A program made the position numbers and the translations under genes. A model generated the notes under the pieces. That model worked only from the letters and a program-made list of their open reading frames with translations, did not search any database and was not told the origin of the DNA. Below, one piece after another: positions 3,655 to 62,901 of a stretch of DNA of 64,000 nucleotides (position 1 is the stretch's first letter; the number at the start of each line of letters is the position of its first letter). This DNA is from an uncultured Nitrospirales bacterium (GTDB taxonomy: Bacteria; Nitrospirota; Nitrospiria; Nitrospirales; NS-4): positions 27,027 through 91,026 of the forward strand of contig CAZSUT010000002.1 of NCBI GenBank assembly GCA_964610095.1, read 5' to 3'.

Positions 3655-3660
3655 CTCTAT

Positions 3661-6101: not shown

Positions 6102-6106
6102 GCAAT

Positions 6107-7824: not shown

Positions 7825-7887
7825 ACTGCTCTCTTCGCTTAGATCCTTCGATGCAATTCTTGATGAGCGTCGCCCTGGTTCTAGGGC

Positions 7888-9183: not shown

Positions 9184-9240
9184 TTGATCTTCCCCCAAAT
9201 TTCGTTCTTATCGTGTGGACGCCAAGAGCCATCCCCAAGT

Positions 9241-10122
9241 TCAGGGCGTCCCTGTCCTGCCCATAGCGAGCGGCGCGTGTTCGGCAAGGCCCATGCCACG
9301 TTCGCTGGGTTCAGGCTGGCCGGACGCCGAGGGGGAGAGGAGCGATTGGGATTTCCAGACAGCCCAAGGCGTCTCATCGCGAGCATACATATCGTCCAGT
9401 CGTTGCTTGTCCTTGAACGTATCCATGCTGATCCAGAAGCCTTCATAGCGGTACGTGATGAGCTTCCCTTCCTGGATTAACCTCTGGAAGGGCTCATGAA
9501 CCAATTCCTCATTGGGATGGATGTATTCGAAGATTTCTCTTCTGAAAATCATGTAGCCGCCGTTGATCCATAGGCCCGATTTATTGAGGTCCTTAAGATC
9601 CCAAACTTGGCCGTCGTCCTGGATTCTCACCACGTGGAAACTCTGGATTGGCCTTACACTGAGGAAGCTTCCGATCGCATCCCGCCCCTGAAACTCATCG
9701 ATAATATCGGGAAGGTGGAAATCGGTAAGCCCATCCGTGTAGTTCGCCAGGAAGATCTCTTCACCCTCGAGGTATGGTTGCACAGCCTTGAGCCGTTGCC
9801 CCAAATTGGAATTCAATCCCGTATCGACGAAGGTGATGTTCCAATCATGGATGTCTCGGTTCGTCATGCGGATGTCCTTCCCACCCTTAGACATCGTAAA
9901 ATTGTTCGAGAGACATTCATCGTAGTTGAGGAAGTAATTCTTGATGGTATCTCCCTGGTAACCCAGGCACAAAATGAAGTCCTTGTGTCCATAATGGGCA
10001 TAGTATTTCATGAGGTGCCAGAGGATGGGTCTATACCCGATGTTAACCATGGGTTTCGGAATTGCATCCGAATATTCGCGCAAGCGCATGCCCAAGCCTC
10101 CGCAAAAAAGAACGACCTTCAT
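9241..10122 (-). CDS. rfbF: Glucose-1-phosphate cytidylyltransferase
   Basis: MKVVLFCGGLGMRLREYSDAIPKPMVNIGYRPILWHLMKYYAHYGHKDFILCLGYQG is near-textbook RfbF. There is a low-complexity C-terminal tail of about 35 aa. Confidence 0.9.
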   Translation of the reverse strand: MKVVLFCGGLGMRLREYSDAIPKPMVNIGYRPILWHLMKYYAHYGHKDFILCLGYQGDTIKNYFLNYDECLSNNFTMSKGGKDIRMTNRDIHDWNITFVDTGLNSNLGQRLKAVQPYLEGEEIFLANYTDGLTDFHLPDIIDEFQGRDAIGSFLSVRPIQSFHVVRIQDDGQVWDLKDLNKSGLWINGGYMIFRREIFEYIHPNEELVHEPFQRLIQEGKLITYRYEGFWISMDTFKDKQRLDDMYARDETPWAVWKSQSLLSPSASGQPEPSERGMGLAEHAPLAMGRTGTP

Positions 10123-12004: not shown

Positions 12005-12094
12005 GGCATGACCTCCACCAAGTTGTAGCTTCTATCGAGCGAATGAGGCTGGGGCGGCAGCGTTAGTATTGACTTGGCGTCCTGGCATGGGAGG

Positions 12095-13432
12095 CTACAA
12101 TCCAATCCCTTCGTACCGAGCTACGCTTCGTTTGTCGAGCAAGCGTCGTCCATCGACGACTAGAGGTTGTGTGCCTCTGCTCTTAAGCAGTTGCGGGAGC
12201 GCACCAAACTGCGCCCAATTGGTTACGAGGACGATGGCATCCACATCGTCGAGCGAGTCCTCAAGCCGCACGCAAAGGGTCAGACTTCGCTCAGAGAACA
12301 GCTTGCGGGCCTCCTCCATGGCCACCGGGTCGTATGCCTTGAGGATTACCCCTTCGTCCAGAAGCCTCTTGATGATGGGAATTGCCGGCGACTCGCGCAT
12401 ATCGTTCGTGTCCGGACGAAACGCTAATCCGAGAATCGCGATCCGCACCCCGTTCAGCGAAGGAAAATGTTTCTTTAAGAGGGCAATGACCCGGTCTGGC
12501 CTTTCGTCGTTGATGCGCATGACGGCGTTGAGCAGCCGCATGGTCGTCCTCTCTTCGTCGCCCTGGGCCACCAGGGTCTTCACGTCCTTCGGGAGACAAC
12601 TTCCACCAAAGCCGCAGCCTGCCATGAGGAAGCAGGTAATGGGTGCTGTAACCCGATTGCCGTTCGGAAGTATGGTGGTCAAGTACCGGCTGGCATGGAC
12701 TCCCTTCATTACGTCCACAATGTCAATGCTGCTGAGCGCCGTGCACAGGTTTGCGAGTTCATTGGAAAACGAGATCATCGTGGCGAGCAAGCAGTTAGAA
12801 GCGTACTTAATCATCTCAGCCGTCTTGTTGTTCGTCCGCAGGAGTTTTACTGCCGGGAACACGCTGTAGAGGGCCTCCTGCAGTCTGATACTGGCTTCAT
12901 CAATACCGCCGATGACGATCCGATCCGGATACATGAAATCGTGGACAGCCTCCCCTTCCGTCAGAAATTCGGGGTTCATCCCCAGACCGAAATCGACACC
13001 AACCTTTTTCCTTGACGCCTCTTCGAGGATCGGCAACACGATCCCGTCAGTGGTTCCTGGAACCACAGTGCTTTTCATGACGACAAGATGGTACCCGGAC
13101 TTGGCCAGCAGAGCGCGCCCGATCTGCCCCGACACCTCTTTGATATAGGTCAGATCGATCTCACGACCATCGAAAGGAGTTCCCACTGCGATCAGAGACA
13201 ACTCAGTCCCCTGAACAGCTTTCTCAAGATCCGTGGTGGCCGTCAACTTGGCATGGATGTTCCGCTGCAACAGTTCTTCGAGCCCCGCCTCGAAAATCGG
13301 CGGCTGGCCATTGTTAATACCGTCAATCTTCTTCGGGTCCACATCGACGCAGACCACGTTGTGCCCTTTCTCTGCCAGGCACACCCCCGTCACGAGCCCC
13401 ACGTAACCAGTGCCAATTACTGAAACGTTCAT
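12095..13432 (-). CDS. Nucleotide-sugar 6-dehydrogenase (UDP-glucose/GDP-mannose dehydrogenase family)
   Basis: MNVSVIGTGYVGLVTGVCLAEKGH N-terminus and the catalytic region GFGGSCLPKD. The start is moved to M20 at 13432, where the KDGGE codons supply AAGGATGG as a Shine-Dalgarno. Confidence 0.9.
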   Translation of the reverse strand: MNVSVIGTGYVGLVTGVCLAEKGHNVVCVDVDPKKIDGINNGQPPIFEAGLEELLQRNIHAKLTATTDLEKAVQGTELSLIAVGTPFDGREIDLTYIKEVSGQIGRALLAKSGYHLVVMKSTVVPGTTDGIVLPILEEASRKKVGVDFGLGMNPEFLTEGEAVHDFMYPDRIVIGGIDEASIRLQEALYSVFPAVKLLRTNNKTAEMIKYASNCLLATMISFSNELANLCTALSSIDIVDVMKGVHASRYLTTILPNGNRVTAPITCFLMAGCGFGGSCLPKDVKTLVAQGDEERTTMRLLNAVMRINDERPDRVIALLKKHFPSLNGVRIAILGLAFRPDTNDMRESPAIPIIKRLLDEGVILKAYDPVAMEEARKLFSERSLTLCVRLEDSLDDVDAIVLVTNWAQFGALPQLLKSRGTQPLVVDGRRLLDKRSVARYEGIGL

Positions 13433-21985: not shown

Positions 21986-22543
21986 TTGATTGTACCGATG
22001 TTGTTGCAGACCCTCTTTAAATTTAAGGTGTTACGTAGCTCGAAGTCAGTTGCGCCCGATTCGGCATTTTATTTGCGTAATCTCAACCCGAGTGAAGCCC
22101 ATCTCACTGCTCAGCAGCAGCGAGGAAGAACGCAGAAACAGGGGGAGCAGGTGGAATCTGAACCTTTCCGAGAGAGACCAGGCACTCCGGTCCATCAGGA
22201 CTGCAGACGCGCCGAGCGTGCAGCCTTCATGGAATATTGTCCCTATGAAATCAGTGAGTCTCTGGGTGAAGACGCGATCGCGATTCACCAAGGGGAGGCG
22301 CTCTCGATCAACATCAGCAAAGAGGGCATGCTGCTTCTAATGGATCAGCGCCCTCCGGTGCAGCAGGTGTTCGAAATTCAGGTGCCCGCCTCCACCAGGG
22401 GCAAGACCACAGGTTTAGTTGAAGTCTGCTGGACACGTAAGATTCCGATTGAGGACTTAGACAGTAGGTACCTAGTCGGGGTCAAGTTCCTGTTCGACCT
22501 CGATACCTCTTCCCAGCAACGAGTAGTTGAGCACATCCTCTAA
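21986..22543 (+). CDS. PilZ domain protein (paralog 2)
   Basis: RRAER (RxxxR) and SINISKEGMLLL (N-x-S-x-x-G). The C-terminus is YLVGVKFLFDL. The start is uncertain: TTG at 21986, ATG at 21998, or GTG at 22151 after GGGGGAG. Confidence 0.65.
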   Translation: MIVPMLLQTLFKFKVLRSSKSVAPDSAFYLRNLNPSEAHLTAQQQRGRTQKQGEQVESEPFRERPGTPVHQDCRRAERAAFMEYCPYEISESLGEDAIAIHQGEALSINISKEGMLLLMDQRPPVQQVFEIQVPASTRGKTTGLVEVCWTRKIPIEDLDSRYLVGVKFLFDLDTSSQQRVVEHIL

Positions 22544-22821
22544 CGTATCCTCTTCTACCGTCCGTCCACACGCAGCGGTCCTCTCACGACAGCGACATTA
22601 AAGGAATTTGCAGCCGTGAGAGGTTCGTCACTTTAATTCTCAACGCGTGTTTTCACAAGGGCTTGATTATCGGCTTGGTTTCCCCGTTTAAGCCTAAAAT
22701 CAATATGTTGCTCAGAATGAGCACAGGTGAACCCCCAACTCACCAGAGGGCTCTTCCGCGCTTAAGCACGGCTATTGCATCGCAAATCAGGTGGGAGGAA
22801 TAATAACTGGAGGGCGCCGAA

Positions 22822-23157
22822 ATGCCGGACCTTCCGGAACGCAGAAGCAGCGAGCGTCTACCCCTTATACGACCTTGCCCCTACGAACTCAGCAGGGTCA
22901 CGAGTGGCGGTGCCGTCGAGGTATCACAAGGTTACGCGGTCTCGATCAATATCAGCTCGGAGGGCATGTTGCTCTTTATGCCCCAGGCGCCGGGCGAGAG
23001 GCAAGTCTTCGAAGTCCAGGTGCCCTCTCTGGCCACGCAAGAGAGTAGAACAATGTTAGTGGAAAGATGCTGGTCCCGACAGATTCCCATGAGCGCAGAT
23101 ACCACCATGCACTTAGTCGGCGTCAGGTTCCTGTTCGAAGTGCCTTCCTCTCGGTAA
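22822..23157 (+). CDS. PilZ domain protein (paralog 3, canonical motifs)
   Basis: RRSSER (RxxxR) and SINISSEGMLLF (N-x-S-x-x-G). The C-terminus is HLVGVRFLFEV. 111 aa. Confidence 0.75.
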   Translation: MPDLPERRSSERLPLIRPCPYELSRVTSGGAVEVSQGYAVSINISSEGMLLFMPQAPGERQVFEVQVPSLATQESRTMLVERCWSRQIPMSADTTMHLVGVRFLFEVPSSR

Positions 23158-23219
23158 CGCACTACAATCGGCCTCTCGTCAGATCGCCCCTGCTCGTTCG
23201 GACACCGATTCGCCAGTCG

Positions 23220-23687
23220 CTAGGCAACAGCTTTCTTAACATTGGCAAGATGTTGCAGCTCTTCTGCCTGTTCAGTGACGTGCTCTGGAACTCCGAGATC
23301 CTCTTCTTCCAAGGTAATGACAACGAAAGTGCCGTCACTCGATTTGTGATCAGGCAGTCCGTACCCGCGAAGCAGCACCCTCCGCCCAGGTTCGCCAACG
23401 ATGCGCCTTATTTCGAATGGGTCCCAGGTGCTTGCCGCCGTGCGGCGGTTTAAAGCTTCTAGGACTTGAACATAAAGCCCAAACACTGGTGTCGAGACGA
23501 GGCTCCTGACGGACCCAACCTCAACCTGACCGATTCGACCTGCTAGCTCAAGGGCGCGTCGGTTCACGCGAAGCACTTGGAACGTGGGTGAAAATACAAG
23601 AATTCCTGGTCCACTGGGGGCATGAGCCAATTTCTCCGAAGAGTTCGGAGCAGGAACAGGCTCTCCCAAGCCACTTGTGGTTTGCAT
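23220..23687 (-). CDS. Stand-alone PAS-like domain protein, paralog of the LuxR regulator N-terminus
   Basis: GPGILVFSPTFQVLRVNRRALELAGRI and EIRRIVGEPGRRVLLRGYGLPD align with GPGILLLSPALQLIHMNRRAWELSGKI and QIRRLVATPRPPVLLRAFGLPD of ORF 21128. The ATG at 23687 is preceded by GAGGAGGA; the ORF-track start at 23774 is rejected. Confidence 0.6.
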   Translation of the reverse strand: MQTTSGLGEPVPAPNSSEKLAHAPSGPGILVFSPTFQVLRVNRRALELAGRIGQVEVGSVRSLVSTPVFGLYVQVLEALNRRTAASTWDPFEIRRIVGEPGRRVLLRGYGLPDHKSSDGTFVVITLEEEDLGVPEHVTEQAEELQHLANVKKAVA

Positions 23688-24541
23688 GTTAAGATTCCTC
23701 CTCTCGACTAAACCGAGCGGACGCAAACCTTCCGAAAGAAAACTGGGGGGATAGCGGGCAGGAGCACAAGTCACCTAAGAGAGGAACTCGATCAAGTAAA
23801 GAAAAAAGCGAATCGGAGAATTCACCGGCCTTGTCAAGAACCTGTGGAAAGCCTGTGAATATGGCAAGAACAGTACCAGTGAGCCCATGTGCGAGCAATC
23901 CCTACAAAAGGGTTACGAACTACTACTAGAGGCTTTGTGAAGGAATGGCAACAAAATTAATGAGTTAAACAAACCGAGGCGGCTAATTACTTGATCAAGA
24001 GTGAATAAACCTGGATGTCAGTGCCTCCTAAGGAGATCCTGAGATTGTCCATAGATTTGAGCTCGCAGCGTTCAGACAACTACAGAAAAAAGCTTCTTAG
24101 TTAAAACGGTTGGCGGGGATCCATAAACCACGAGAGAGGCTTGTTCCAGCTTTCCAGTGTCATAAAACTTGACAGTCCAGGATAGTAATTCAACCTTGCC
24201 CAAAATGAACTGAAAAGGCTGATCATTCCACCGCCTTATGAGTGAGCGAATCATTCCCGCTTCCTATGAGCCTTGCTCTGTACTGTCGGAAGAATTGACA
24301 CCTAACTAGAACGTACAAATCCAACGTTAGACAAATCAAGGAATTACATTCCAGTACGGGAAATGCATTCACCTTGAACGGAGTTGTGTGCTTGCCCCGT
24401 GAGACGCTAACCATGCGGGGGGTTGGTTGCTGTTGTGCCCCATGCAAGTTCTGGGCTCGCGGGGCTCGTGGCGTGGCGGCGCACGCGAGAAATCCGACGT
24501 CGGGGCGCACGGCCGTACGCCCTGATTCGGAAAGAGGCGCT

Positions 24542-50674: not shown

Positions 50675-50977
50675 TTACCACTTCAGTAAGTTGATCTGGT
50701 CCACGTTGGTGGCGATCTTGCCGCGGAACACGACGATGATGATCGCCAGCCCCACGGCAGCTTCCCCGGCCGCGATGGCGATCACGAACAGAGACATGAT
50801 CTGGCCCGCGAGCGAATCTAGATGATTTGCGAAGGCCACGAGGTTGAGGTTGGCCCCGTTCAGCATGATCTCGATCGACATGAGCACGATGATGAAGTTC
50901 CGCCGGACTAGCACGCCGACGAGCCCCGTCACGAACAGGATCGCGCTCACCGCCACATATGCCGCTATAGGAACCAC
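50675..50977 (-). CDS. nuoK: NADH-quinone oxidoreductase subunit K
   Basis: 100 aa, 3 TM helices, with the conserved LSIEIMLNGANL-type motif (SIEIMLNGANLNLV). GTG start. Confidence 0.9.
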   Translation of the reverse strand: MVPIAAYVAVSAILFVTGLVGVLVRRNFIIVLMSIEIMLNGANLNLVAFANHLDSLAGQIMSLFVIAIAAGEAAVGLAIIIVVFRGKIATNVDQINLLKW

Positions 50978-51002
50978 GTTAACCGTTATACGTTATTCGT
51001 TA
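50975..51002. repeat. Heptad array, 4 x (NNCGTTA): CACGTTA ACCGTTA TACGTTA TTCGTTA
   Basis: Seen directly. It fills the 22-nt nuoJ-nuoK gap and overlaps both the nuoJ stop (TAA) and the nuoK GTG start. It belongs to a family with copies at 60452, 62612 and 62692. Confidence 0.6.
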
Positions 51003-51521
51003 ACCGCCCTTGACTTCGGAAGGGGTGGGGGTTTTCGCCAGGACGATGGCCCCGACGATGGCCCCCAGCAGGAACACGCCTACGATCTCGAACGGCAACA
51101 GGTAGTCGCTGAACATTAAAATTCCGATCGCCGTGCTGTTGCCCACCGCTTCGATGGCCTTGGTCGTCGCCGGGCCCTTCATTCCGCTGTACCGGGAGGC
51201 CAGCAGCACCAGCAGGAGCTCGACGGTCAACGCGCCGACGCCCACGATGTACCAGGCGTACCGGTGATGGAAGTACCGCTCCTCGGTCTTGAGGTTAAGC
51301 AGCATGAGGACGAACAGATACAGGATCAGGATAGCGCCGGCGTAGATGATGATCTGCACGACCGCCAGGAACTCGGCGTGCAGCAGCACGAAGAGCCCCG
51401 CCATGTGCCCAAGGAGCGCGAGCAGGGCGATGCCGCAGTGCACAGGGTTCCGGAGCGCCACCGTCAGCACCCCCGCCACGATGCTGACCAGGGCAAAGTA
51501 GGCGAAGAAGATCAGTGTCAT
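51000..51521 (-). CDS. nuoJ: NADH-quinone oxidoreductase subunit J
   Basis: 173-aa membrane protein with a typical NuoJ N-terminus (FFAYFALVSIVAGVLTVALRNPVH), positioned between nuoI and nuoK. Confidence 0.9.
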   Translation of the reverse strand: MTLIFFAYFALVSIVAGVLTVALRNPVHCGIALLALLGHMAGLFVLLHAEFLAVVQIIIYAGAILILYLFVLMLLNLKTEERYFHHRYAWYIVGVGALTVELLLVLLASRYSGMKGPATTKAIEAVGNSTAIGILMFSDYLLPFEIVGVFLLGAIVGAIVLAKTPTPSEVKGG

Positions 51522-52132: not shown

Positions 52133-54826
52133 TCAACGCTTCTCGATCGCAACACGGGTGAACTTGAACGCCGGCACGCCCGTAGTCGGATCGACGACGC
52201 ACTCGATCAAATCTTTTATGAGTGGCTCATTATAATGTTCGGGGAAGAAGCACGTCCCCCGCGCGAGATCGTGATTCGGCTCAGTCCGCAGCTCGACGGT
52301 GCCTCGCGCCGAGGTCACACGCACCACGTCCTGGAGGCCCAGCTGCAGCTGCGAGAGGTCCTCCGGGTTCATCTGCAGGCTGCCCTTGCTGGGATAGAAC
52401 TGGACCAGACCCGACGCGCGCGTCGAGAGCTTGCCCGAATGGTAGAGCACTTGCCCGATGGTCAACGCGAAGGGCCGCGCCGCCTGATCGGCCTCGGCGC
52501 CTGCAGCGTAACGCGCCGCGACCTCGCGGACGTAGCCGTTGCGCAGGTAGTCTTCCGGTCGGGCCGTGACTGGCCGGGGTTCGCCGAGATTGTAGTACCC
52601 CGGTAGGAGCTTCATGATCTCCCGCTGGACGTCCTGCGCCGCTTCGTACTCCATCGGATACCCCAACGCCGTGCCCAGCGCCGCGAAGATCTCCCAGTCC
52701 GGGCGGGCCTCTTCGTACGGCTCCAGCGCGGGACGGACCCGATTCACCTTCCCTTCCAGGTTGGTGAAGGTGCCGTCCTTCTCGGCGAAGGTGGTCGCCG
52801 GGAGCACGACGTGCGCGAGTCGCCCGGTCTCGGTCAGGAAGAGGTCCTGGCCGATCAGCAACTCGACCTTCTCCAACGCTTCTCGGACGCCGGTCGAGGC
52901 CGGCAAGGTCGCAAGCGGGTTCTCCCCCACCAGATACAGCGCCTTGATGCGCCCCTCGCGGCAGCGCTTCAAAATCTCCATCAACGTCGCGCTCGGATCA
53001 GGCGGCGGCAGCGAGCAGCGCCACACGGTCGCGAACTTGGCGCGGGCGTTCTCGTCGGCATAGAGCGCCTGCCCCGGCAAGAGCTCCGACGCCACCCCCA
53101 TGTCCACCGCCCCCTGCTCGTTGGCCTCTTCCGGCAGCGCGTTCACGCCGCAACCGGGCCGCGTGAGCTTGCCGGTTACCCAGGCGAGGTCCACGAGGTT
53201 CAAGACGCCCGCATAGCCGTCGACCTGACGCGTCACGCCCTCGGCGCACAGGATCACGGCCTTCGGCGCCTCGGCGTAGAGTCGGACCGCATCGACCGCC
53301 ACCGCCCGCGACACGCCGGTCCTGGCCGTTAGGACCTCCCACGACAGTCCAGCCACCGCGGCCTTCAACGCGGCAAAGGCCTCCGGCGCGGCGGTCGTGG
53401 CGGCCTCGTCCACCAGTTCCTCCTCGACCGCGGCCTTGACCAGCGCCTGGATGAACCACCGCTCGCTCCCCGCCACGATCGGCAACGGATGTGAGGCGAG
53501 CTTTGCGATGTTGGTCATCCGCGACGTGGCGACGATCACCTGTGCGCCATACACGCGGAACGCCTCTTTCACCCGCAGGCTGGCGACCGGATTGGTCTCG
53601 GTGATGTCGGTCCCGATGAGTAGGAGCACGTCGGCTTTCGTGATCTCTTCGTAGCCGTTCATCATCCGGCCAACGCCAGCGGCGTGCTGGAGGGCCAGCG
53701 TGAAGTTCAGATGGCCGTAGCGGGCGCTGCTGTCCACCTGATTGGTGCCGATCGCCGCGCGCATCAGTTTCTGGAACAGGTAGAGTTCCTCGTTCGTGCA
53801 ACGGGCAGTGATGAGTCCCGCGATCGCGTTGGGGCCGTGCTGGGCCTTGATGGCCTTCAGCCGCCCGACCACCGTGTCCATGACTTCAAACCAGGAGCGC
53901 GGCGCGAACCCCTCCTCCGTGCGGACCATGGGCATGCCCAGCCGTTCTTTGCTGTCGATGTACTGGTACCCGAAGCGGCCGCGCACGCACAGGCCTCCGT
54001 GTCCCTCGGCGGTCTCCGCGCGATCGCCCCATTTGTTCTTCCAGGAGAGCGGCGACGTCACCCGCTGGACGTCCTTACCGCTGGTCTCGATGGACATCTG
54101 GCAGCCGTCTGCGCAGTAGGCACACGTGCTCGTCGTCTTCTTCAACTGCCACGGTTTGTAGACGTACTTGGAATACTTGTTCGTGATGGCGCCCACAGGA
54201 CAGACCGCCAGGCAGTCCCCGCAGAACTCGCAGACGAGGCCCTTGTCCCCCTTCGCCACCACGTGGGTGGTGCCCTCTTTCTTGAAGAACTGCAAGGCGT
54301 CCACCATCTGCACGTCCTTGCAGATGTTGATGCATTCCCCGCACAGGATGCAGCGGTTCATGTTGAAGTCGAGCACGAGGCTGCGCCGGTCCTCAGGCAG
54401 GCCCTTGGGCTTGGCGTTGACGAGGTTCGTGACGCCGTGCTGGAAGGCCATGTCTTGCAACTCGCAGTGGCCGTCGGCGTCGCAGACCGGGCAGTCCAGA
54501 GGGTGGATCGTGAGGTGCTTCTCCACCGCCTTCTTGCGGGCCAGAAAGAGATCCTCTCCCTCGCACCGCACCACCATGCCCGCCTCGGCCTTGGCGGTGC
54601 AGGACCGCACCGGCGCCTTCTTGCCTTCGACCATCACCAGGCACATCCCACAGGAGCCGAACGGATCGAAGGTGTAGTGATAGCACATGGCCGGAATGAT
54701 CTTGCCGGTCTGGGAGATGACGTCGTAGAGCGACACGCCCCCTTTGGCCTGCACCGGCTGCCCGTCAATGGTCAGCTCGATCGACGGGGCTTCGACATCG
54801 GGGGAGGTGACTGGTTTCAACGCCAT
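52133..54826 (-). CDS. nuoG: NADH-quinone oxidoreductase subunit G-like (2Fe-2S, His-ligated 4Fe-4S, 2x 4Fe-4S, molybdopterin-oxidoreductase domain)
   Basis: SCGMCLV...C, HPLDCPVCDADGHCELQ, CILCGECINIC, CEFCGDCLAVCP and CAYCADGC, then a long MopB-type domain. 897 aa. Confidence 0.85.
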   Translation of the reverse strand: MALKPVTSPDVEAPSIELTIDGQPVQAKGGVSLYDVISQTGKIIPAMCYHYTFDPFGSCGMCLVMVEGKKAPVRSCTAKAEAGMVVRCEGEDLFLARKKAVEKHLTIHPLDCPVCDADGHCELQDMAFQHGVTNLVNAKPKGLPEDRRSLVLDFNMNRCILCGECINICKDVQMVDALQFFKKEGTTHVVAKGDKGLVCEFCGDCLAVCPVGAITNKYSKYVYKPWQLKKTTSTCAYCADGCQMSIETSGKDVQRVTSPLSWKNKWGDRAETAEGHGGLCVRGRFGYQYIDSKERLGMPMVRTEEGFAPRSWFEVMDTVVGRLKAIKAQHGPNAIAGLITARCTNEELYLFQKLMRAAIGTNQVDSSARYGHLNFTLALQHAAGVGRMMNGYEEITKADVLLLIGTDITETNPVASLRVKEAFRVYGAQVIVATSRMTNIAKLASHPLPIVAGSERWFIQALVKAAVEEELVDEAATTAAPEAFAALKAAVAGLSWEVLTARTGVSRAVAVDAVRLYAEAPKAVILCAEGVTRQVDGYAGVLNLVDLAWVTGKLTRPGCGVNALPEEANEQGAVDMGVASELLPGQALYADENARAKFATVWRCSLPPPDPSATLMEILKRCREGRIKALYLVGENPLATLPASTGVREALEKVELLIGQDLFLTETGRLAHVVLPATTFAEKDGTFTNLEGKVNRVRPALEPYEEARPDWEIFAALGTALGYPMEYEAAQDVQREIMKLLPGYYNLGEPRPVTARPEDYLRNGYVREVAARYAAGAEADQAARPFALTIGQVLYHSGKLSTRASGLVQFYPSKGSLQMNPEDLSQLQLGLQDVVRVTSARGTVELRTEPNHDLARGTCFFPEHYNEPLIKDLIECVVDPTTGVPAFKFTRVAIEKR

Positions 54827-54839
54827 GACTGCATTCCCT

Positions 54840-56090
54840 TCAGCGGTCGCACTCGCCCATCACAATGTCGTACGTGCCGAAGATCGTCACGATGTCGGCG
54901 ATCATGTAGCCGCGCGCCATGTAGTCGAACGCCCCCATGTGAATGAAGGAAGGGGCGCGAATCTTCAACCGGTAGGGCTTCCCCTCGCCGTTGCTGACGA
55001 TGTAGAACCCCAGCTCGCCCTTGGCGGCCTCGGTCCCGCAATAGATCTCCCCCTTCGGGGCCTCAAAACCCTGGGAGAACAGCTTGAACTGCTGGATCAT
55101 GCTGGCCAGGTCATTGAAGACTTTGTCCTTGGGGGGCAACGTCACGCTCGGCACGTCGGCCATGACCGGCCCGTCGGGAATCTTCTCCAGGAGCTGCTTG
55201 ACCATGTTCCGGCTCTGCCGCATCTCCTCGACGCGGACCCAGTACCGGTCGTACGTGTCGCCGTTCTTGCCGACCGGCACGCTCCACTCGCAGTCGCCGT
55301 ACGCGGCGTAGGGCTCGAACTTGCGCAGGTCGTAGTCCACGCCGGACCCGCGCAGCGTCGGCCCGCTCAATCCAAAGTTGACGGCGTCCTCGGCCGAGAT
55401 CACCGCCACGCCCTTGGTGCGGGAGAGCCAGATCCGGTTGGTGTTCAAGAAGGTGACATACTCCTCCAGCTTCGGCGGGAAGTAATCGCAGAACCGGCGC
55501 AGCTTTTCGACCAGGTCCGGCGTGAAGTCCCGTTCGACACCTCCGATCCGGTACCAGCTCGTGGTCAGCCGTGCCCCGCAGAGCTCGTCGAAGAAGTCCA
55601 AGAGGATCTCCCTGTCGCGGAAAGTGTAGAAGAACACCGTCATCGCGCCGATGTCCAGCGCCTGCGTGCCGAGCCAGAACAGGTGCCCGATGATCCGCTG
55701 CACCTCGGCCACGATCGTGCGCAGGGACTCCGCGCGCGGAGGGACTTTTAAATCCAGCAGCTTCTCTACGGCCCGGCAGTAGGCGAAGTTGTTGTACATC
55801 GCGCAGACGTAGTCTAGGCGGTCCGTGTGGGGGATGAACTGATGGTAAGTGCCGTCCTCCGCCAGCTTCTCCACGCCCCGGTGCAGAAACCCCATGACCG
55901 GCGTCGCCTTGACGATCCGCTCGCCCTCCAGGGACAGCACCACCTTCAGCACGCCGTGCGTGCTGGGGTGCTGGGGCCCCATGTTGAGCATCATCTCCTC
56001 GGTGCGCAGCGTCGGCAGCGTCGGATTCGCCGGATGCTCCCGGTCGTCCTTATAGACGGTAGTGCGCTGATCTTCTAACGGCTGTGGCAT
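54840..56090 (-). CDS. nuoD: NADH-quinone oxidoreductase subunit D
   Basis: MMLNMGPQHPSTHGVLK...LEGE. The C-terminus is DIVMGECDR. Confidence 0.95.
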   Translation of the reverse strand: MPQPLEDQRTTVYKDDREHPANPTLPTLRTEEMMLNMGPQHPSTHGVLKVVLSLEGERIVKATPVMGFLHRGVEKLAEDGTYHQFIPHTDRLDYVCAMYNNFAYCRAVEKLLDLKVPPRAESLRTIVAEVQRIIGHLFWLGTQALDIGAMTVFFYTFRDREILLDFFDELCGARLTTSWYRIGGVERDFTPDLVEKLRRFCDYFPPKLEEYVTFLNTNRIWLSRTKGVAVISAEDAVNFGLSGPTLRGSGVDYDLRKFEPYAAYGDCEWSVPVGKNGDTYDRYWVRVEEMRQSRNMVKQLLEKIPDGPVMADVPSVTLPPKDKVFNDLASMIQQFKLFSQGFEAPKGEIYCGTEAAKGELGFYIVSNGEGKPYRLKIRAPSFIHMGAFDYMARGYMIADIVTIFGTYDIVMGECDR

Positions 56091-56096
56091 GGGTCC

Positions 56097-56594
56097 TTAA
56101 CCGGTCTTCTCGCCGATGAAGGTGAACGTGTCGCGCCACCCCTTGCCGCGCGCGGGGAAATCCTTCCGCAAGGGATAGCCTTCCGGGAAATCATCCGGGA
56201 GCAGGACCCGCACGAGGTTTGGATGGTTCCGGAACCGGATCCCCATCATGTCGTACACCTCGCGCTCCATGAAATCGGCGCCCTTCCAGATGTCCGTCAT
56301 GGAATCGACCACGCAATCGTCTTCCGGTACCCGGGTCTTCACGCGGATCCGCTGCTTGCGCCGGATCGAGTAGAACTCATAAACGACCTCGAACCGCTCG
56401 GGGTGGTCCGGCCAATCCACGGAGCTCACGTGGACGATGTAGTCGTAATCCAGCCCGGGATCGCCGTGCAGATACCGGCAGACCGCGTGCAGGCGATCCC
56501 GCTTCACCTGGAGGGTCAGGTCGCCCCGCCACTCGACGGCCCTCTGGACGGCTTCGGGGAAGGCCTGCTGGATCTTCTGGGTGTCGGGGTGCAC
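56097..56594 (-). CDS. nuoC: NADH-quinone oxidoreductase subunit C
   Basis: FEVVYEFYS...REVYDMMGIRFRNHPNL. The GTG start at 56594 lies 2 nt after the nuoB stop. The ORF-track N-terminus to 56870 is rejected. Confidence 0.85.
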   Translation of the reverse strand: MHPDTQKIQQAFPEAVQRAVEWRGDLTLQVKRDRLHAVCRYLHGDPGLDYDYIVHVSSVDWPDHPERFEVVYEFYSIRRKQRIRVKTRVPEDDCVVDSMTDIWKGADFMEREVYDMMGIRFRNHPNLVRVLLPDDFPEGYPLRKDFPARGKGWRDTFTFIGEKTG

Positions 56595-56596
56595 GG

Positions 56597-57138
<542 letters not shown>

Positions 57139-57148
<10 letters not shown>

Positions 57149-57540
57149 TCCAGCGCCCCTTTCTTCCAGGCATAGACATAACCGACGACGAACAGCGCGA
57201 TGAAGATCAACATCTCCACCATGCCGATCACGCCGATCCGGTTGAACGCGATGGCCCACGGGTACAGAAACACGATTTCAATGTCGAAGATCACGAACAG
57301 CATCGCGATGATGTAGTAGCGGACCGGAAACGGCATCCGCGCATCGGAGAAGGGTTCGCTCCCGCACTCGTACGGGCTGAGCTTTTCCGGGTCAGGCAGT
57401 TTGGGCTGGAGAAAGTGACTCAGGACCAGCGTGCCTGCCCCGAACGCAAACGCCACCCCGATGAACACCAGGATCGGGAAATAATTCGAGAGATAGGACA
57501 GCAGATGCGCTGTACCGTTCACTTTTTCGCCCCCTAACAC
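57139..57540 (-). CDS. nuoA: NADH-quinone oxidoreductase subunit A
   Basis: [12 protein letters not shown] and [22 protein letters not shown] start (an alternative GTG is at 57522). Confidence 0.85.
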
Positions 57541-57870
57541 AAAGACTTACAATGGAAAAAAGAGTCTAACATCGCGTTTTCAAACAAAGCAAGCAACCAA
57601 AAGACCTAGAAACCGCGCTGTTGGATGGGCCTTACGGCTTCACAGACGGTGCCCGGCGGGCTAGTTTCTCCAGCCGGGTACGAAGATCCCCTGGCGGCTG
57701 GCCTGAACCTGCCTCCCATTGCTCCGTCAGTGGTTCAGCCGTTTTTGTCCTTCGATGGATTTGCGTACGGACCCGCTTGGGTGTGGTCTTGCCGTAGTCA
57801 GGTGGGTCCGGCTGGTTGGTCAATGTCCTTTGATCAAGCTTGGCCATGCCGCTCTTTCTTCCATTACCCC

Positions 57871-58365
57871 CTACAAAGGCTGTCCCGATCGCCCTGGTGG
57901 AGCCAGCGGCATGGGCACCGGCCCGCGTGGTCCCTCACCCGGCGTCATCGGGTCGTAGAGCCGTTCGTTCCCGTTGATGCCGTCTTCTTCCACGTCAATC
58001 CACATCTCGCCCTTGCCCGGTTCGAACTCCCCGTTGCCGTCAAGGTCCACCCAGTAAAAGAGCGGATGGGCAAACGTGATGGCGACCTCATAACCGTACT
58101 GGTTGACTGACACCTTATACGTACGGCGAGCCGTCATGAAATCCGGCTTGCTCTCCTGGCTTGCCAGCTTGAAGACGCGGAAGAACATGTTGTTCCGCCA
58201 GTCGTAGTAGGCGTCCACTTCACGGCGGTCGAATTCATCGGGCTCCGTAGGCAACGCGTATCCAGAAGGCGGCAGACTGGCCCCTCTCTGCTCCGCTGAC
58301 TCAAGCATCACGGGAATGACACAGAGAAAGACTGCCACGCTGATTGTGCAGAACATGCATCGCAT
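57871..58365 (-). CDS. Hypothetical secreted protein
   Basis: Signal peptide MRCMFCTISVAVFLCVIPVMLESA. The overlapping plus-strand ORF 57625..58110 is Pro/Trp/Arg-rich and is rejected. Confidence 0.45.
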   Translation of the reverse strand: MRCMFCTISVAVFLCVIPVMLESAEQRGASLPPSGYALPTEPDEFDRREVDAYYDWRNNMFFRVFKLASQESKPDFMTARRTYKVSVNQYGYEVAITFAHPLFYWVDLDGNGEFEPGKGEMWIDVEEDGINGNERLYDPMTPGEGPRGPVPMPLAPPGRSGQPL

Positions 58366-58469
58366 GATTATACGGTACCATCATCGTAACCCCTCGTCAA
58401 TCAAGAGTTTTATCTTGACTTCTATTCGATATCTGCTATGCTCCCCTTAGTGTGAACTTGGAGGCTGGC

Positions 58470-59696
58470 ATGAGAATACCACGACAGAAGCGGGCATGGG
58501 TGCAGGTCTTGGTCGTCGCATGGGTGCTGAGTCTTCCGGCAGGAGCCGCCACTCCGAGCTTTGCTGAAGACGCTCCTGCACCGCCAACTTCGACCTTGGC
58601 GGGCGAGCCTGCCATCGCCTTTCAGGGCGGGTACCTCAAATTCTCCGAGCAAGTCTCCGGCCTGGTAGTTGGCTCGCGCGAATCCAAACAGCTCTTCGGG
58701 ATGGGCGATGTCCTCTACATCCGGGTGATGCCGGATGCGAACGTGAAGGTCGGCGACCGGCTCACCCTCTACCGCCCCACAAAGCAGGTCTACCATCCGG
58801 TCACGCGGGCCCCATTGGGACAGATCATGGCCATACTAGGCATTCTCCAAGTCACGACCGAAACCAAGGAGAACGTAGTTTCGACTCGCATCGAACGCGC
58901 CTTCGACTCGATCTCGCCTGGCGATCTTGTGATGCCGTTCCAGTTCCCCGCAGAGGTGCCAGCCCAGCAGGCGACCAGCGGGCCTCTCACAGGAGTGCTC
59001 GTGGACTTCAAGCAGGCGCGCCAGGTCACCGCACAGTCGGAAATCGTCTACATCGACCGGGGTGAGACGGACGGCGTCGCGCTGGGAGACCGCTTCAGCG
59101 TGATCCGTCCGGGCCGCCGGCTCTCCTTCATGACCAAGAAACCGGACGTGGTGCTCGCCGAGATCAAAGTCATCGGGCTGCAGCCACGGACCGCGACCGC
59201 CTATGTGGTGAAGAGCACTGACGCCATCCATCGGGGAGACATCGTGAGCCGCATGACGCCCCCGTCGTCGCCAGTCAAGGAGGTGCCGAAAGCAGAGGGC
59301 GCACCCCCAGCTGTCGCCAAAGTGACGCCGCCTGAAGCGCCCACGCCAGCGCCGCCCCTCCCGAAGAGCCTCGAGGACGTCTACTTCGACTTCGACAAGT
59401 GGGCGCTGACGGATCAGGCCAAGAAGACCCTCATGGCACAAGCCGACCTCCTCAAGCAGAACGCGAATGCTGCGATTACCATCGAGGGGTACGCCGACGA
59501 GCGGGGAAGCACGGAATATAACCGCATCTTAGGGGAAAAACGGGCCCTGGAAGTCCGCCGCTTCCTCACGGAGTTGGGGGTCAGCAATCCCGTCACGGTC
59601 ATCAGCTTTGGAAAGGACAAGCCGTTCTGCACCGAGAAGGATGAGGCCTGCTACACGCAGAACCGTCGCGTACATCTCGTGGTCGCCGGCAACTGA
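58470..59696 (+). CDS. OmpA/Pal-family peptidoglycan-binding protein with a large N-terminal domain and a Pro-rich linker
   Basis: The C-terminus reads VYFDFDKWALTDQAKKTL...ITIEGYADERGSTEYNRILGEKRALEVRRFL. The ATG at 58470 follows GGAGG. Confidence 0.85.
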   Translation: MRIPRQKRAWVQVLVVAWVLSLPAGAATPSFAEDAPAPPTSTLAGEPAIAFQGGYLKFSEQVSGLVVGSRESKQLFGMGDVLYIRVMPDANVKVGDRLTLYRPTKQVYHPVTRAPLGQIMAILGILQVTTETKENVVSTRIERAFDSISPGDLVMPFQFPAEVPAQQATSGPLTGVLVDFKQARQVTAQSEIVYIDRGETDGVALGDRFSVIRPGRRLSFMTKKPDVVLAEIKVIGLQPRTATAYVVKSTDAIHRGDIVSRMTPPSSPVKEVPKAEGAPPAVAKVTPPEAPTPAPPLPKSLEDVYFDFDKWALTDQAKKTLMAQADLLKQNANAAITIEGYADERGSTEYNRILGEKRALEVRRFLTELGVSNPVTVISFGKDKPFCTEKDEACYTQNRRVHLVVAGN

Positions 59697-60035: not shown

Positions 60036-62078
60036 TTGGCCGCCGACGCCCCGCTGTACCTTCAGGTAGCCGTCCCCCGCCGTCTCTCTCGCGTCTTCAC
60101 GTACGCCGTCCCGTCCGGCGATCCAGGTCCCTGGATACCCGGCATGCGCGTCCGCGTCCCGTTCGGCCGGAGCACGCTGATCGGCTACATCGTAGCGGTC
60201 ACACCTCACGCCGACACCGACGGGAAGCCTGCGCGGATCCGAGAAGTCCTCGCACGGGTGGACGAGAAACCCAGCATCCCGCCCGACCTCCTTGCACTGG
60301 TCCAATGGATTTCGGAGCGGTACCTGGCCCCGTTGGGTCAGTGCCTGCGTCTCGCGTTCCATGGCGCCCCCGACAAGACACGCTCCGCCGCACGGACGAA
60401 ACGCGCGGACAGTATTCCCTCGGTCACTCCTGGGCCCGCCGCCGATCAGTCCACGTTTAACGTTAATCGTTCAACGTTAAACGAAAGGCTTGCCCCGCTC
60501 CGCGCGAAGGTCTTAGCCGCCCTTGTCCACCATCGCCCGGAACGTATCTTCCTACCCGCGGCCACCTACGAGTTGGGGGAACTCTACGGCAACGCTGTCG
60601 AGGCGACGTTGGAGCAGGGACGGACCGCGCTCGTGCTACTCCCTGAAGTCGCACGCGTGGAGGCGAGCCAAGGCGTTTTCCTGTCTCGTTGGGGACGTCG
60701 CTGCCAGATGTACCATGGGGGCCTTCCTCCCGGAGCGCGTCGGAAGGCGTGGGCCCGCATCCAGCAGGGCGAAGCGTCCGTCGTGGTGGGCACCCGTTCA
60801 GCCGTCTTGGCCCCCCTTGCCCGTCTGGGACTCATCGTCATCGACCAGGAGGACCATCCCGCCTACAAGGCGGAAAACGTGCCCCGTTACGATGCGCGGA
60901 CCGTGGCCGACGAACGCGCCAGGCGAGCCGGGGCCGTGCTCGTGCTGGCCTCCGCACATCCTTCCCTGGCAACCGTGCACGCAGTCGGTTCAGAAGTCCT
61001 GCTGCTCCGTGCGAGCCCCGACGGGGCGCCGCGGGTGACGGTGGTGGACCTGCGTGACGCGCCCTTCGGCACCATACTGAGCCCGCCGCTCACTGAGGCG
61101 ATCGCAGCCTCTCTGGCTGCTGGCAAGAAGGCTCTCCTGTTTCTCAACCGCAAGGGGTATGCCCCGGTACTCCAGTGCCGTGACTGCGGTCAGGCCGTGA
61201 AGTGCCCGGCCTGCGCGGTGGGATGGGTGTACCATAAACACGACGGCCTGCTCCGATGCGGCCATTGCGGCAGAACCGGACAGGTGCCGGAGGCCTGTCC
61301 GTTCTGCTTGGGAGCCCGTCTGCTCCCCTCCGGATTCGGGACCGAGGCCTTAGAAGAAGCGGTGCGAGCCCGATTTCCCGAGGCCCGTGTCGCCCGCCTG
61401 GAACGCGATCGGCCCGGCGGGGATCGCGCCAACGCGGCCATCCTCTCACTGTTGCAGGTCGGAGAGCTCAACATCCTGATCGGCACCCAACTGGTCGTCA
61501 CGCGGTCTCCCCGACCAGTCGTCTCCCTGGTAGGCCTGGTCCATCCCGATGCCGCGTTGAACCTGCCGGACTTCCGGGCGGCCGAACGGGCCTACCACAC
61601 GCTGCGTGAGGTGATGGCCCTGGCCGACGCTAAGGATTCGACCGCTCGCATCGTGATGCAGACCTACATCCCGCAACATCACGTGGTCCGCGCCCTGGCC
61701 GAACGGGATCCCCGGTTCTTCTACGACAACGAATTGGCGGCCAGGAAGGCGCTGGGCTATCCCCCGTTCGGCCAGCTGATCGGATTGCGGGTCAGCGGCA
61801 CCAAGGAGGAACGAGTCGAGACCGTCGCGACCAAGTGGGAGACTCTCTTACGGGCCGAAAGCGCGCGCGCGCGTCCCTCACACTTCGAGATACTGGGCCC
61901 GATCCCCGCCACCCCGTTCCGCGTGCGCGGTCGCGTACGCTGGCAGCTCGTGGTGAAGGGACCGGATGGGACGACGTTGCGGCAGGTTGTGCGGACGACG
62001 CTCGCAGAGTTGGAAAAAGCGGGACGCGCCGGCGGCCTCCGTTACGACATTGACGTCGACCCGCAAAGCTTGCTGTGA
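60036..62078 (+). CDS. priA: Primosomal replication protein N' (PriA helicase)
   Basis: YLQVAVPRRLSRVFTYAVP N-terminus, Zn-finger cluster CRDCGQAVKCPACAVGWVYHKHDGLLRCGHCG...CPFC, and helicase motifs (LIVIDQEDHPAYK). The start is TTG at 60036 and is uncertain. Confidence 0.9.
   Translation: MAADAPLYLQVAVPRRLSRVFTYAVPSGDPGPWIPGMRVRVPFGRSTLIGYIVAVTPHADTDGKPARIREVLARVDEKPSIPPDLLALVQWISERYLAPLGQCLRLAFHGAPDKTRSAARTKRADSIPSVTPGPAADQSTFNVNRSTLNERLAPLRAKVLAALVHHRPERIFLPAATYELGELYGNAVEATLEQGRTALVLLPEVARVEASQGVFLSRWGRRCQMYHGGLPPGARRKAWARIQQGEASVVVGTRSAVLAPLARLGLIVIDQEDHPAYKAENVPRYDARTVADERARRAGAVLVLASAHPSLATVHAVGSEVLLLRASPDGAPRVTVVDLRDAPFGTILSPPLTEAIAASLAAGKKALLFLNRKGYAPVLQCRDCGQAVKCPACAVGWVYHKHDGLLRCGHCGRTGQVPEACPFCLGARLLPSGFGTEALEEAVRARFPEARVARLERDRPGGDRANAAILSLLQVGELNILIGTQLVVTRSPRPVVSLVGLVHPDAALNLPDFRAAERAYHTLREVMALADAKDSTARIVMQTYIPQHHVVRALAERDPRFFYDNELAARKALGYPPFGQLIGLRVSGTKEERVETVATKWETLLRAESARARPSHFEILGPIPATPFRVRGRVRWQLVVKGPDGTTLRQVVRTTLAELEKAGRAGGLRYDIDVDPQSLL
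60452..60486. repeat. Heptad array, 5 x (NNCGTTN): CACGTTT AACGTTA ATCGTTC AACGTTA AACGAAA, inside priA
   Basis: Seen directly. An AT-rich 35-nt block in a GC-rich gene, translated in frame as ..STFNVNRSTLNE.. in the linker between the PriA N-terminal domain and the helicase core. Confidence 0.6.
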
Positions 62079-62204: not shown

Positions 62205-62600
62205 TCACCGCTTGACCGGGGGCTCCTCCGGTGGCTCGCCGCGCTTGATCCAACGAAAGACGCCGTAGGCGAAGGTGAGCCAGAAGGTGGCGAAGATGAC
62301 GCCGAAGACTCCCGCACGAAGCAGTTCTATCGTCTGATCTTCGCTCGGTTCTGCCACACCGCCCAGCTTCAGCTTGATCATCTGCACCACAGGCCAGCTC
62401 AGACTCTCCAGTCCCAGAAACAGACACGCCCACGCCCAGAGGTGCTTGGGCGTGGTCCCCAGCCACACCAGCAGCGCGGTGAAGCCGAGCCCGGCCAGCA
62501 CGGCCCAAGACACCGGGATCGGGTTCCACGCCATCGTGAACCCGAACGTGACCACGACGCCCGCCGCGACGGCATTGAGTTTAAGGGTCCACTCTCTCAT
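62205..62600 (-). CDS. Hypothetical small membrane protein (4 TM)
   Basis: 131-aa hydrophobic ORF. No motif recognised. Confidence 0.5.
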   Translation of the reverse strand: MREWTLKLNAVAAGVVVTFGFTMAWNPIPVSWAVLAGLGFTALLVWLGTTPKHLWAWACLFLGLESLSWPVVQMIKLKLGGVAEPSEDQTIELLRAGVFGVIFATFWLTFAYGVFRWIKRGEPPEEPPVKR

Positions 62601-62611
62601 GGATCTCGTGA

Positions 62612-62639
62612 AAGGTTATTCGTTAAACGTTAATCGTTG
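62612..62639. repeat. Heptad array, 4 x (NNCGTTA-like): AAGGTTA TTCGTTA AACGTTA ATCGTTG
   Basis: Seen directly. It lies 12-39 nt upstream of the start codon of the minus-strand gene at 62600. It is inverted relative to the array at 62692-62719. Confidence 0.6.
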
Positions 62640-62691
62640 GGAAAATTCATGGTAGGCGAACAGGGAGAAGTGGTCGAGTCCTGCCCTTCAT

Positions 62692-62719
62692 GAACGTATA
62701 ACGAATAACGATTAACGTT
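62692..62719. repeat. Heptad array in the opposite orientation, 4 x (TAACGNN): GAACGTA TAACGAA TAACGAT TAACGTT
   Basis: Seen directly. It ends 6 nt from the 3' end of tRNA-Leu(GAG). Its reverse complement matches the 62612 array at about 21/28 positions in register. Confidence 0.6.
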
Positions 62720-62725
62720 CGAAGA

Positions 62726-62809
62726 TGGTGCCGAAGGCGGGATTTGAACCCGCACGGGTTTCCCCACACGCCCCTCAAACGTGCGTGTCTGCCATTCCAC
62801 CACTTCGGC
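62726..62809 (-). tRNA. tRNA-Leu (anticodon GAG), CCA encoded
   Basis: Reverse complement: GCCGAAG TG GTGG AATGGCAGA CAC G CACGT TTGAGGG GCGTG TGGGGAAACCCGT GCGGG TTCAAAT CCCGC CTTCGGC A CCA. Confidence 0.9.
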
Positions 62810-62901
62810 GCCGAATGCGATTATATAGTGGCGGTGGACCACACTGTCAATTGACCCCTGGTTGACACCCATCGGCATCGCTCGTAGAATCCACTTCGAT
62901 C

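Follow-up and report, generated by a model that had tools for sequence, protein, structure and literature searches.

Heptad-repeat arrays at stop-to-start junctions in a Nitrospirales bacterium and its relatives

A stretch of 64,000 nt from an uncultured Nitrospirales bacterium (assembly GCA_964610095.1, contig CAZSUT010000002.1, positions 27,027 to 91,026; hereafter the window) was examined for short tandem arrays of a 7-nt unit, TAACGNN, one of which lies between the genes nuoJ and nuoK. The comparisons described here indicated that these arrays are copies of a lineage-wide, dispersed family of heptad repeats located at stop-to-start junctions, a descriptive conclusion which we regard as firm. 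An initial annotation had described four such tracts, and re-reading of the window confirmed their sequences. The arrays are given here on whichever strand shows the unit as TAACGNN.

50977-51002, minus strand: array, TAACGAA TAACGTA TAACGGT TAACGTG
60452-60486, minus strand: array, TTTCGTT TAACGTT GAACGAT TAACGTT AAACGTG
62607-62639, minus strand: array, CAACGAT TAACGTT TAACGAA TAACCTT TCACG
62692-62719, plus strand: array, GAACGTA TAACGAA TAACGAT TAACGTT

Each array contained four to five units. Matches to (TAACGNN)x3 with up to three mismatches numbered 13 in the window, every one within the four arrays, versus 0.47 expected and a maximum of 3 in dinucleotide shuffles of the same DNA; the arrays were, therefore, commoner than composition predicts. 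Tandem Repeats Finder reported a period of 7 or 14 at each of the four places. A pattern-free scan for self-matching at lag 7 (at least 15 of 21 positions) recovered exactly the same four segments of the window, and scans at lags 5, 8 and 10 recovered none. While the 7-nt period was upheld, the core, originally given as CGTTA/TAACG, required adjustment, as the most constant part of the unit was AACG and the two "NN" positions were mostly A or T, giving (T)AACGWW. The tracts were also not four separate copies: the arrays at 62612 and 62692 are the inverted arms of one element, and the array at 60452, previously counted alongside the intergenic copies, is in frame inside priA. The window thus contains three sites in 64 kb, consisting of one complete element, one half element and one intragenic copy. 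The first 50 kb was devoid of heptad arrays. GC content was 0.48 to 0.53 at positions 1-10000 and 22000-24000 versus 0.60 to 0.66 elsewhere in the window, and this low-GC part may be acquired DNA.

The half element occupies the junction of nuoJ and nuoK.

50975-51002, minus strand: solo "right arm" array between the nuoJ stop and the nuoK start
51000-51521, minus strand: nuoJ, 173 aa (Pfam PF00499; open reading frame; junction alignment)
50675-50977, minus strand: nuoK, 100 aa (Pfam PF00420; NCBIfam NuoK; alignment)

The first TAA of the array (51002-51000) terminates nuoJ, and the GTG start codon of nuoK (50977-50975), which aligned to the ATG of nuoK in relatives, begins with the last G of the array, leaving a gap of 22 nt. 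Open reading frames (ORFs), Pfam and NCBIfam assignments and the alignment to relatives all agreed with the original description of an array bridging stop and start. No GGAGG-like motif was detected in the 22-nt gap. The lack of a Shine-Dalgarno (SD) sequence had been remarked upon previously; the observation itself was correct but is not an unusual feature, since only 16 of 53 crudely called starts in the window were preceded by such a sequence. Further into nuoJ, a perfect 12-nt tandem duplication (two copies of GACGATGGCCCC) was present at 51042-51065, coding and in frame.

Conservation of this junction was assessed with a sample of 80 metagenomic loci (denoted, like the other loci compared below, by L numbers) encoding NuoJ relatives with 62% to 97% identity; an exact-protein look-up with the NuoJ of the window returned no record. 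Among relatives with a 93% to 97% identical NuoJ, a full inverted pair with a spacer of ∼70 nt was present in L121/122, only an 8- to 9-nt vestige (CGTTAACG or CGTTAAACG) in L123-141 and an unrelated GC-rich heptad hairpin in L127-131. At 83% to 87% identity, full TAACG pairs were observed in L145/146, L158/159 and L166 and nothing in L142-144. For relatives at 62% to 70% identity, the same junction contained heptad pairs with other cores (GTGAC/GTCAC, TCAGC/GCTGA, GTGAGG and TGTTGAA). Recurrence in related genomes was, therefore, observed but a fixed site at nuoJ-nuoK was not, the junction carrying a pair, a vestige, another hairpin or nothing. The arrays are neither a conserved control site nor an operator specific for nuoK; elements persist for some time at a site yet are dispensable.

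The complete element fills the gap between a tRNA gene and a gene for a small protein.

62607-62724: inverted pair, complete element, filling the 125-nt gap from tRNA-Leu to the 131-aa gene
62692-62724: tRNA-side arm, TAACGNN on the plus strand and (NNCGTTA)n on the minus strand, that of the flanking genes, ∼2-6 nt past the tRNA 3′ end
62640-62691: 52-nt spacer between the arms
62607-62639, minus strand: gene-side arm, (TAACGNN)n, ending 6-13 nt before the ATG at 62600
62726-62809, minus strand: tRNA-Leu(gag), upstream neighbour (ARAGORN; Rfam RF00005)
62205-62600, minus strand: 131-aa conserved hypothetical membrane protein, downstream neighbour (101 homologues; translation)

One of the 101 homologues of the 131-aa protein was named as belonging to a Nitrospirales bacterium (86% identity). 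Contigs encoding homologues of this protein were used for comparing the tRNA-Leu junction. Pairs with a conserved spacer were present in L201/203 and L208, whose right arms differed by exactly one heptad. The 52-nt spacer of the window was unrelated to spacers elsewhere, including that of the orthologous element in L201/L203. Only a right arm was retained in L206/207, positioned 9 nt before the ATG despite a different upstream neighbour, and no array was present at this junction in L204, L210 and L211. An island has inserted at the tRNA-Leu of L208 (7054-9747) leaving behind a duplicated tRNA 3′ end; it encodes an HEPN_AbiV protein, a phage-integrase fragment and a 280-aa protein, and the heptad pair of this locus is located downstream of the duplicated 3′ end.

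The third site is within a coding sequence.

60452-60486, both strands (palindromic core AACGTT): heptad array in frame within priA
60036-62078, plus strand: priA, 680 aa (Pfam PriA_3primeBD, Zn_ribbon_PriA and PriA_C; TIGR00595 at 431 bits, cutoff 230)

Because its AACGTT core is palindromic, this array can be read as an array on either strand. It encodes STFNVNRSTLNE (S-T-F-N-V-N-R-S-T-L-N-E) in the linker following the 3′BD domain. The in-frame array was kept in the window, L130/132/202, L145, L154, L204 and L206, had decayed in L150, though the peptide was kept there, and was deleted in L208. The heptad cores were retained in lineages with an N-terminus of PriA that was only ∼59% identical. 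Third codon positions of the array had an identity of 0.63, as compared with an average of 0.56, and ranked 59th among 393 segments, an unexceptional value which is not decisive for constraint at the nucleotide level. The PriA proteins of the window and its close relatives lack ∼70 residues between the 3′BD domain and the helicase core (window 60036-60800), presumably the winged-helix domain that is found in more distant relatives, and the array sits in this shortened linker. In L201 (6320-6357), an NCBI metagenome record, priA was called as two genes due to a TAG in place of the CAG of L202 and L203, which are otherwise identical. This change lies outside the array, so a frameshift through unit slippage was rejected; the TAG reflects a pseudogene or a sequencing error, and the array is not involved.

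Consensus scans detected no sigma-70-like promoter or intrinsic terminator overlapping any array of the window. As the same scan recovered a canonical promoter for an HAD gene at 62862-62890, promoter detection works in this genome. A search of the whole window with Rfam 15 found only tRNAs at gathering score, and the arrays gave only sub-threshold chance matches, even with relaxed E-values. Hairpins predicted for the inverted pairs consisted of 5-bp core helices broken at the variable bases, and folding z-scores for TAACG pairs were modest (−1.1 to −4.2). When 34 pairs were compared, sense and antisense strands folded equally well (16 versus 18; Wilcoxon p = 0.99) and had similar numbers of G.U pairs (69 versus 71); a selected mRNA hairpin was, therefore, dropped as an explanation. 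Sites for parS, the DnaA box, CtrA, IHF and integron attC, and complementarity to 16S rRNA, were also considered and rejected on sequence or geometry.

The absence of any RNA-strand asymmetry, together with the AT-rich nature of these tracts in a GC-rich genome, would be compatible with a double-stranded DNA operator in which contiguous 7-bp sites are wrapped by an oligomerising protein, either a repressor of the omega/ribbon-helix-helix type or a nucleoid-associated protein. Contiguous direct and inverted heptads are the known site architecture of the ribbon-helix-helix omega repressor of inc18 plasmids. Omega operators, however, are WATCACW heptads upstream of plasmid promoters in Firmicutes, whereas the arrays have a different sequence, are located inside operons and within priA rather than at promoters and have no promoter-like site overlapping them; an omega operator was rejected on these grounds. 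Rapid turnover at orthologous sites and the presence of many core families per genome also argue against the wider operator explanation, which we consider highly improbable.

Turnover was also apparent at the nuoD-nuoG junction. This junction was empty in the window (13-nt gap, 54827-54839), a TAACG pair was present in L145 and L208, and L202 contained a GC-rich palindrome, ccccacctatccctcccccctcgagggggagggtgagggtgggg (12081-12152). A 130-nt insert resembling a miniature inverted-repeat transposable element (MITE), with inverted ends cagaatgctgaaaac...gttttgagcattctg, was found in L204 (17632-17779) and L150 (∼6520-6660). In the nuo operons of the window (52133-58800), L201, L204 and L208, the gene immediately after nuoD (416 aa) encodes a NuoG-like molybdopterin/Fe-S protein of ∼900 aa, and the gene tables show no nuoE or nuoF between these two genes.

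Presence and absence of this type resembles insertion polymorphism with intact flanks, and further small palindromic inserts are found at these junctions. These observations are those expected of a mobile palindromic DNA element similar to MITEs or to repetitive extragenic palindromes (REPs) and their hairpin-forming doublets (REPINs). The arrays would then be terminal or subterminal sites for a transposase encoded elsewhere, with insertion occurring into gene junctions and the stop-rich design merely rendering insertions harmless. Inverted arms, multiple families per genome and the equal folding of the two strands, as befits a DNA palindrome, point in the same direction. Unlike REPINs or MITEs, however, the inter-arm spacers were unrelated between copies, arm length and unit order differed in every copy, a target-site duplication was not evident, and solo arms and 8-nt vestiges were common. 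No transposase gene was seen near any copy at the loci compared. A mobile element is, therefore, unlikely in our estimation.

A scan for (TAACGNN)x4 was performed on 185,579 species genomes, in which about one chance match was expected over 1.2e12 positions by our own estimate. More than 120 loci were detected. The matches listed included five records from Nitrospirae, Nitrospiraceae or Nitrospirales containing four-unit arrays similar to those of the window, with variable WW positions and in DNA of 56% to 63% GC. Among the matches listed, the arrays of these Nitrospirota-type loci formed inverted pairs with arms 16 to 42 nt apart; in L070, L072 and L016 the flanks were two long ORFs pointing the same way, and in L005 a small ORF on one side and a tRNA on the other. 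Along the direction of transcription, a complete element consists of an upstream stop codon, in or touching the first unit, or a tRNA end; (NNCGTTA)3-5; a spacer of 11 to 52 nt, unrelated between loci; (TAACGNN)3-6; and a start codon 0 to 20 nt further on. The CGTTA arm came first and the TAACG arm second in all of the ∼12 TAACG-type pairs, and the opposite order, TAACG...CGTTA, was found in none of them. As the arms are reverse complements, this order reads identically on both strands.

Similar arrangements occurred outside this lineage among the matches listed. A Pseudidiomarina locus (L090) had a stop codon followed by (CGTTAYT)4, 16 nt, (TAACGAW)6, 2 nt and an ATG, while in Bacteroidetes TAACG arrays were located 3 to 5 nt before start codons (L050 and L078) or just past a stop (L043). 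The distance from the forward array to the start was 0 nt for nuoK, 6 to 13 nt for the 131-aa gene, 0 to 20 nt in relatives and 2 to 5 nt in Bacteroidetes and Pseudidiomarina. For 100 evaluable arrays among the matches listed, a long ORF started within 40 nt on the 3′ side of the same strand in 23, a long ORF start was located on the other side in 9, and an ORF ended just 5′ of the array in 44. Placement was thus non-random, with arrays tied to stops and starts, and the family recurred in relatives. The outcomes named in the initial annotation as contradicting it (a frequency explained by composition, random placement relative to genes and absence from relatives) were not observed.

Most of the (TAACGNN)x4 matches listed were perfect heptamer microsatellites, found in Bacteroidota, Chloroflexota, Cyanobacteria, Acidobacteriota and other groups. 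In viral contigs, 33 TAACG-pattern stretches were detected versus 28 for a permuted-core control, (ATACGNN)x4, such that TAACG is not a globally special word; these counts indicated that heptamer arrays are a general class and that TAACG is the choice of a lineage. A third scan, with the core AATCG, does not provide an independent control because this core coincides with the TAACGAT family on the opposite strand. Long perfect (TAACGNN)n arrays were often situated at the contig ends of metagenome-assembled genomes (L007, L045, L052, L054, L060 and L062), so heptamer arrays evidently break short-read assemblies.

The perfect repeats, the near-equal viral counts and the one-unit indel between orthologues are all as expected for plain neutral microsatellites, tracts arising wherever slippage seeds them, without selection on sequence or placement. 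Heptanucleotides are, furthermore, reported to be the commonest long simple sequence repeats in many prokaryotes, possibly due to polymerase slippage (Mrazek 2007, as cited in PMC4679880). The Nitrospirales arrays, however, are short, imperfect tracts in which the core is conserved and the spacer bases vary, the same core occurs at unrelated loci and in different species, and the fixed arm polarity, an enrichment of stop triplets (see below) and the exact stop-to-start placement argue against unselected tracts. Neutral slippage alone seems to us quite improbable.

The fixed core and spacing, combined with two varying bases, could instead reflect a platform on RNA in the 5′ region of the downstream cistron, with each unit of (UAACGNN)n occupied by a single subunit or domain of a protein having a 7-nt register and translation of nuoK and other array-linked genes being switched on or off as a consequence. 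Candidates for this protein would be a HutP- or TRAP-like ring, cold-shock proteins or ribosomal protein S1. Forward arrays directly before SD-less starts in three phyla and the maintenance of the right arm before the 131-aa gene in L206/207, irrespective of the upstream neighbour, favour such a platform, and the same proposal has been published for the TAACTGA repeats (PMC4679880). The initial annotation had suggested targets of the TRAP or HutP type, but the sequence requirements of these proteins are absent. HutP recognises three UAG triplets 4 nt apart, present twice in a leader with a terminator and antiterminator; the arrays share the period of 7 but have UAA, with no UAG in any unit, and no terminator. 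TRAP binds 9 to 11 (G/U)AG triplets separated by 2- to 3-nt spacers, a period of ∼5 nt, and neither GAG nor UAG repeats nor this period occur in the arrays. TRAP, HutP and omega may still serve as useful analogies for the reading of a 7-nt register. Other points against an RNA platform are that arrays are also found reversed after stops, beside tRNAs and inside priA, that they are gained and lost at orthologous sites between close relatives, and that the four or more heptad cores of L181-type genomes would require several proteins, or one reading little beyond the period. An RNA platform is, on balance, rather unlikely.

Heptad arrays with other cores were also present in relatives. A periodicity scan of 794 kb from relatives (self-match of at least 16 of 21) detected 88 segments at lag 7 versus 0, 2, 8, 0 and 1 at lags 4, 5, 8, 10 and 11, respectively, a periodicity specific to heptads. 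Of 115 distinct heptad arrays, 66% were intergenic as compared with ∼12% intergenic DNA. Inverted pairs lay between co-directional genes in 24 of 27 cases, the ends of their arms falling within about −13 to +17 nt of the stop and start. More distant NuoJ relatives (L127-L131 and L168-L200) had other-core inverted heptad pairs at the same operon junctions (e.g., L181:10516-10604, L168:16190-16284 and L177:13018-13102), the alternative cores being GTGAC/GTCAC, TCAGC/GCTGA, TCAGT/ACTGA, CTGAG/CTCAG, GTGAGG and ATTGAA. About ten heptad arrays were present in 20 kb of L181, and genomes such as this one carry at least four different heptad cores.

The consensus sequences of these families contained an excess of stop triplets: 54 of 67 families had a stop triplet on one strand versus 37.8 ± 3.4 in shuffles. 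Among 32 trinucleotide classes, TGA/TCA was the outlier (39 versus 17 expected; z = 6.6); TAA was at expectation and TAG was depleted. Of 34 pairs, 17 had stops in all three frames in the start-proximal arm and 4 in the stop-proximal arm, with 16 versus 3 cases being exclusive to one arm.

The remark in the initial annotation that no such element was known to have been described requires qualification. A close published analogue, though with a different unit, is the TAACTGA direct repeat of marine Beggiatoaceae, of which ∼170 sets occur in a "Maribeggiatoa" genome and which is also found in some Cyanobacteria and Bacteroidetes (MacGregor 2015, PMC4679880). Those sets contain 2 to 6 copies, are mostly forward and intergenic and end ∼1 nt before start codons lacking a ribosome-binding site; some run into the end of the preceding ORF, a few are inside ORFs, and their function is unknown, binding by S1, Csp or CsrA-like proteins having been proposed without experiment (PMC4679880). 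Contiguous 7-nt units starting with TAAC, stop triplets and a forward position just before such starts are, therefore, shared features. In contrast, the unit of the window is TAACGWW with two variable bases, such that only the TAAC prefix is common to both, the host is a member of the Nitrospirales, and the arrays are usually organised as an inverted pair that extends across the complete gap from stop to start, as compared with one inverted repeat among the 170 BOGUAY sets (PMC4679880). Contiguous heptamers near start codons and promoters in Nostoc are reported to have effects on reporters, with no binder identified (bioRxiv 10.1101/2022.06.06.494920). Our literature searches found no publication that pairs Nitrospira with heptanucleotide repeats or deals with Nitrospira intergenic repeats.

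The short tandemly repeated repetitive (STRR) sequences of cyanobacteria and other long simple sequence repeats of heptanucleotides (Mazel 1990; Mrazek 2007; the Nostoc study) are likewise intergenic and near promoters or starts, with several unit families per genome, proposed change by slippage and no known role. STRRs are mostly near perfect and often long, whereas the arrays described here consist of 3 to 6 imperfect units having five conserved and two variable bases and are usually in inverted pairs. The arrays thus share with the TAACTGA/STRR class the 7-nt tandem units and forward placement before starts but not an identical unit. REPs, bacterial interspersed mosaic elements and REPINs are similarly short, dispersed extragenic palindromes at operon junctions and 3′ ends, with doublet hairpins and strain-variable presence. 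A REP unit, however, is an imperfect palindrome of 20 to 40 nt without 7-nt periodicity, REPIN spacers are conserved and mobilisation is by REP-associated tyrosine transposases, while the arms in the window are direct heptad arrays with unrelated spacers and are non-palindromic except for the AACGTT-type copy in priA. Mycobacterial interspersed repetitive units occupy intercistronic gaps in operons, and their ends overlap the flanking stop and start codons, but these are units of 46 to 101 bp with mini-ORFs and not heptads. Rickettsia palindromic elements are tolerated in frame inside protein genes, as is the copy in priA, and are 100 to 150 bp in length and not composed of heptads.

The family, its geometry and polarity, the stop-triplet enrichment, turnover and occurrence across phyla were observed directly in these comparisons. 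The explanation to which we incline, at somewhat less than even confidence, is that of a dispersed, translation-compatible intercistronic repeat element akin to the TAACTGA and STRR repeats. Elements would be gained and lost at gene junctions on short time scales, with arms changing by whole-unit (7-nt) slippage and by arm loss. This coming and going at junctions is the behaviour of a repeat element and not of a gene-specific operator. TAA- or TGA-bearing heptads would place stops in three frames immediately before the following start codon within a tract that is AU-rich and free of start codons, and elements of this design might be tolerated, and possibly exploited, at operon junctions for a translational effect. 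Ribosomes coming off the upstream cistron, or initiated spuriously within the spacer, would terminate beside the downstream start and could re-initiate there independently of an SD sequence; nuoK, for example, may be translated following termination at the first TAA of the array. Translation would thus have shaped the elements, as suggested by the nuoJ stop within the array, the stop-based units, the three-frame barrier on the start side and the absence of starts or SD sequences in the tract. We infer slippage as the mode of change and termination-reinitiation as the consequence of the arrays, and a dedicated binding protein would not be needed.

Several observations weigh against this translation-compatible repeat. 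The AACG core is kept while two spacer bases vary, across unrelated loci and distant phyla with unrelated spacers; this is the pattern expected of a sequence-specific trans-acting factor, and slippage alone does not account for it. Retention of the priA heptad cores in lineages with an N-terminus of only ∼59% identity hints at constraint. Two copies flank tRNAs and are outside arguments based on translation. The preference for a period of 7 is unexplained, as periods of 4, 5 or 8 also cycle stops through three frames. Finally, the counts for polarity and stop enrichment include phylogenetically related loci and depend upon a crude, home-made gene caller. Because the period and the maintained core are not accounted for, a trans-acting binder of RNA or DNA or a mobilising enzyme are live rivals.

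A broader and decidedly doubtful extension would treat the heptads as one cross-phylum class, having 5-nt cores with a stop-like U-R-A triplet and a 7-nt register read by the ribosome with proteins of the S1 or cold-shock type. Such arrays would act as SD-independent "ribosome funnels" in which ribosomes in any frame terminate at the array and begin anew at the adjoining start. Through the inverted partner arm, the effect would be tied to translation of the upstream cistron, making this a general coupling device for SD-poor bacteria. Nitrospirota, Bacteroidota, Cyanobacteria, Gammaproteobacteria and, in all likelihood, lineages resembling Acidobacteriota are the known or candidate hosts of the class.

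Reports of heptanucleotide repeats in bacteria date back to 1990. The present analysis adds a lineage not previously reported to carry them and a clear-cut architecture in which an inverted pair takes up exactly the interval from stop to start. It also provides two regularities which any explanation must meet: the enrichment of TGA/TCA and the polarity with three-frame stops beside the downstream start. If these elements are merely tolerated, they would be markers of very recent genome change and a source of gene-calling errors, as the arrays supply stops, occur in frame in priA and break assemblies. If they do affect translational coupling, they would matter for the setting of subunit ratios in operons such as nuo in SD-poor bacteria.

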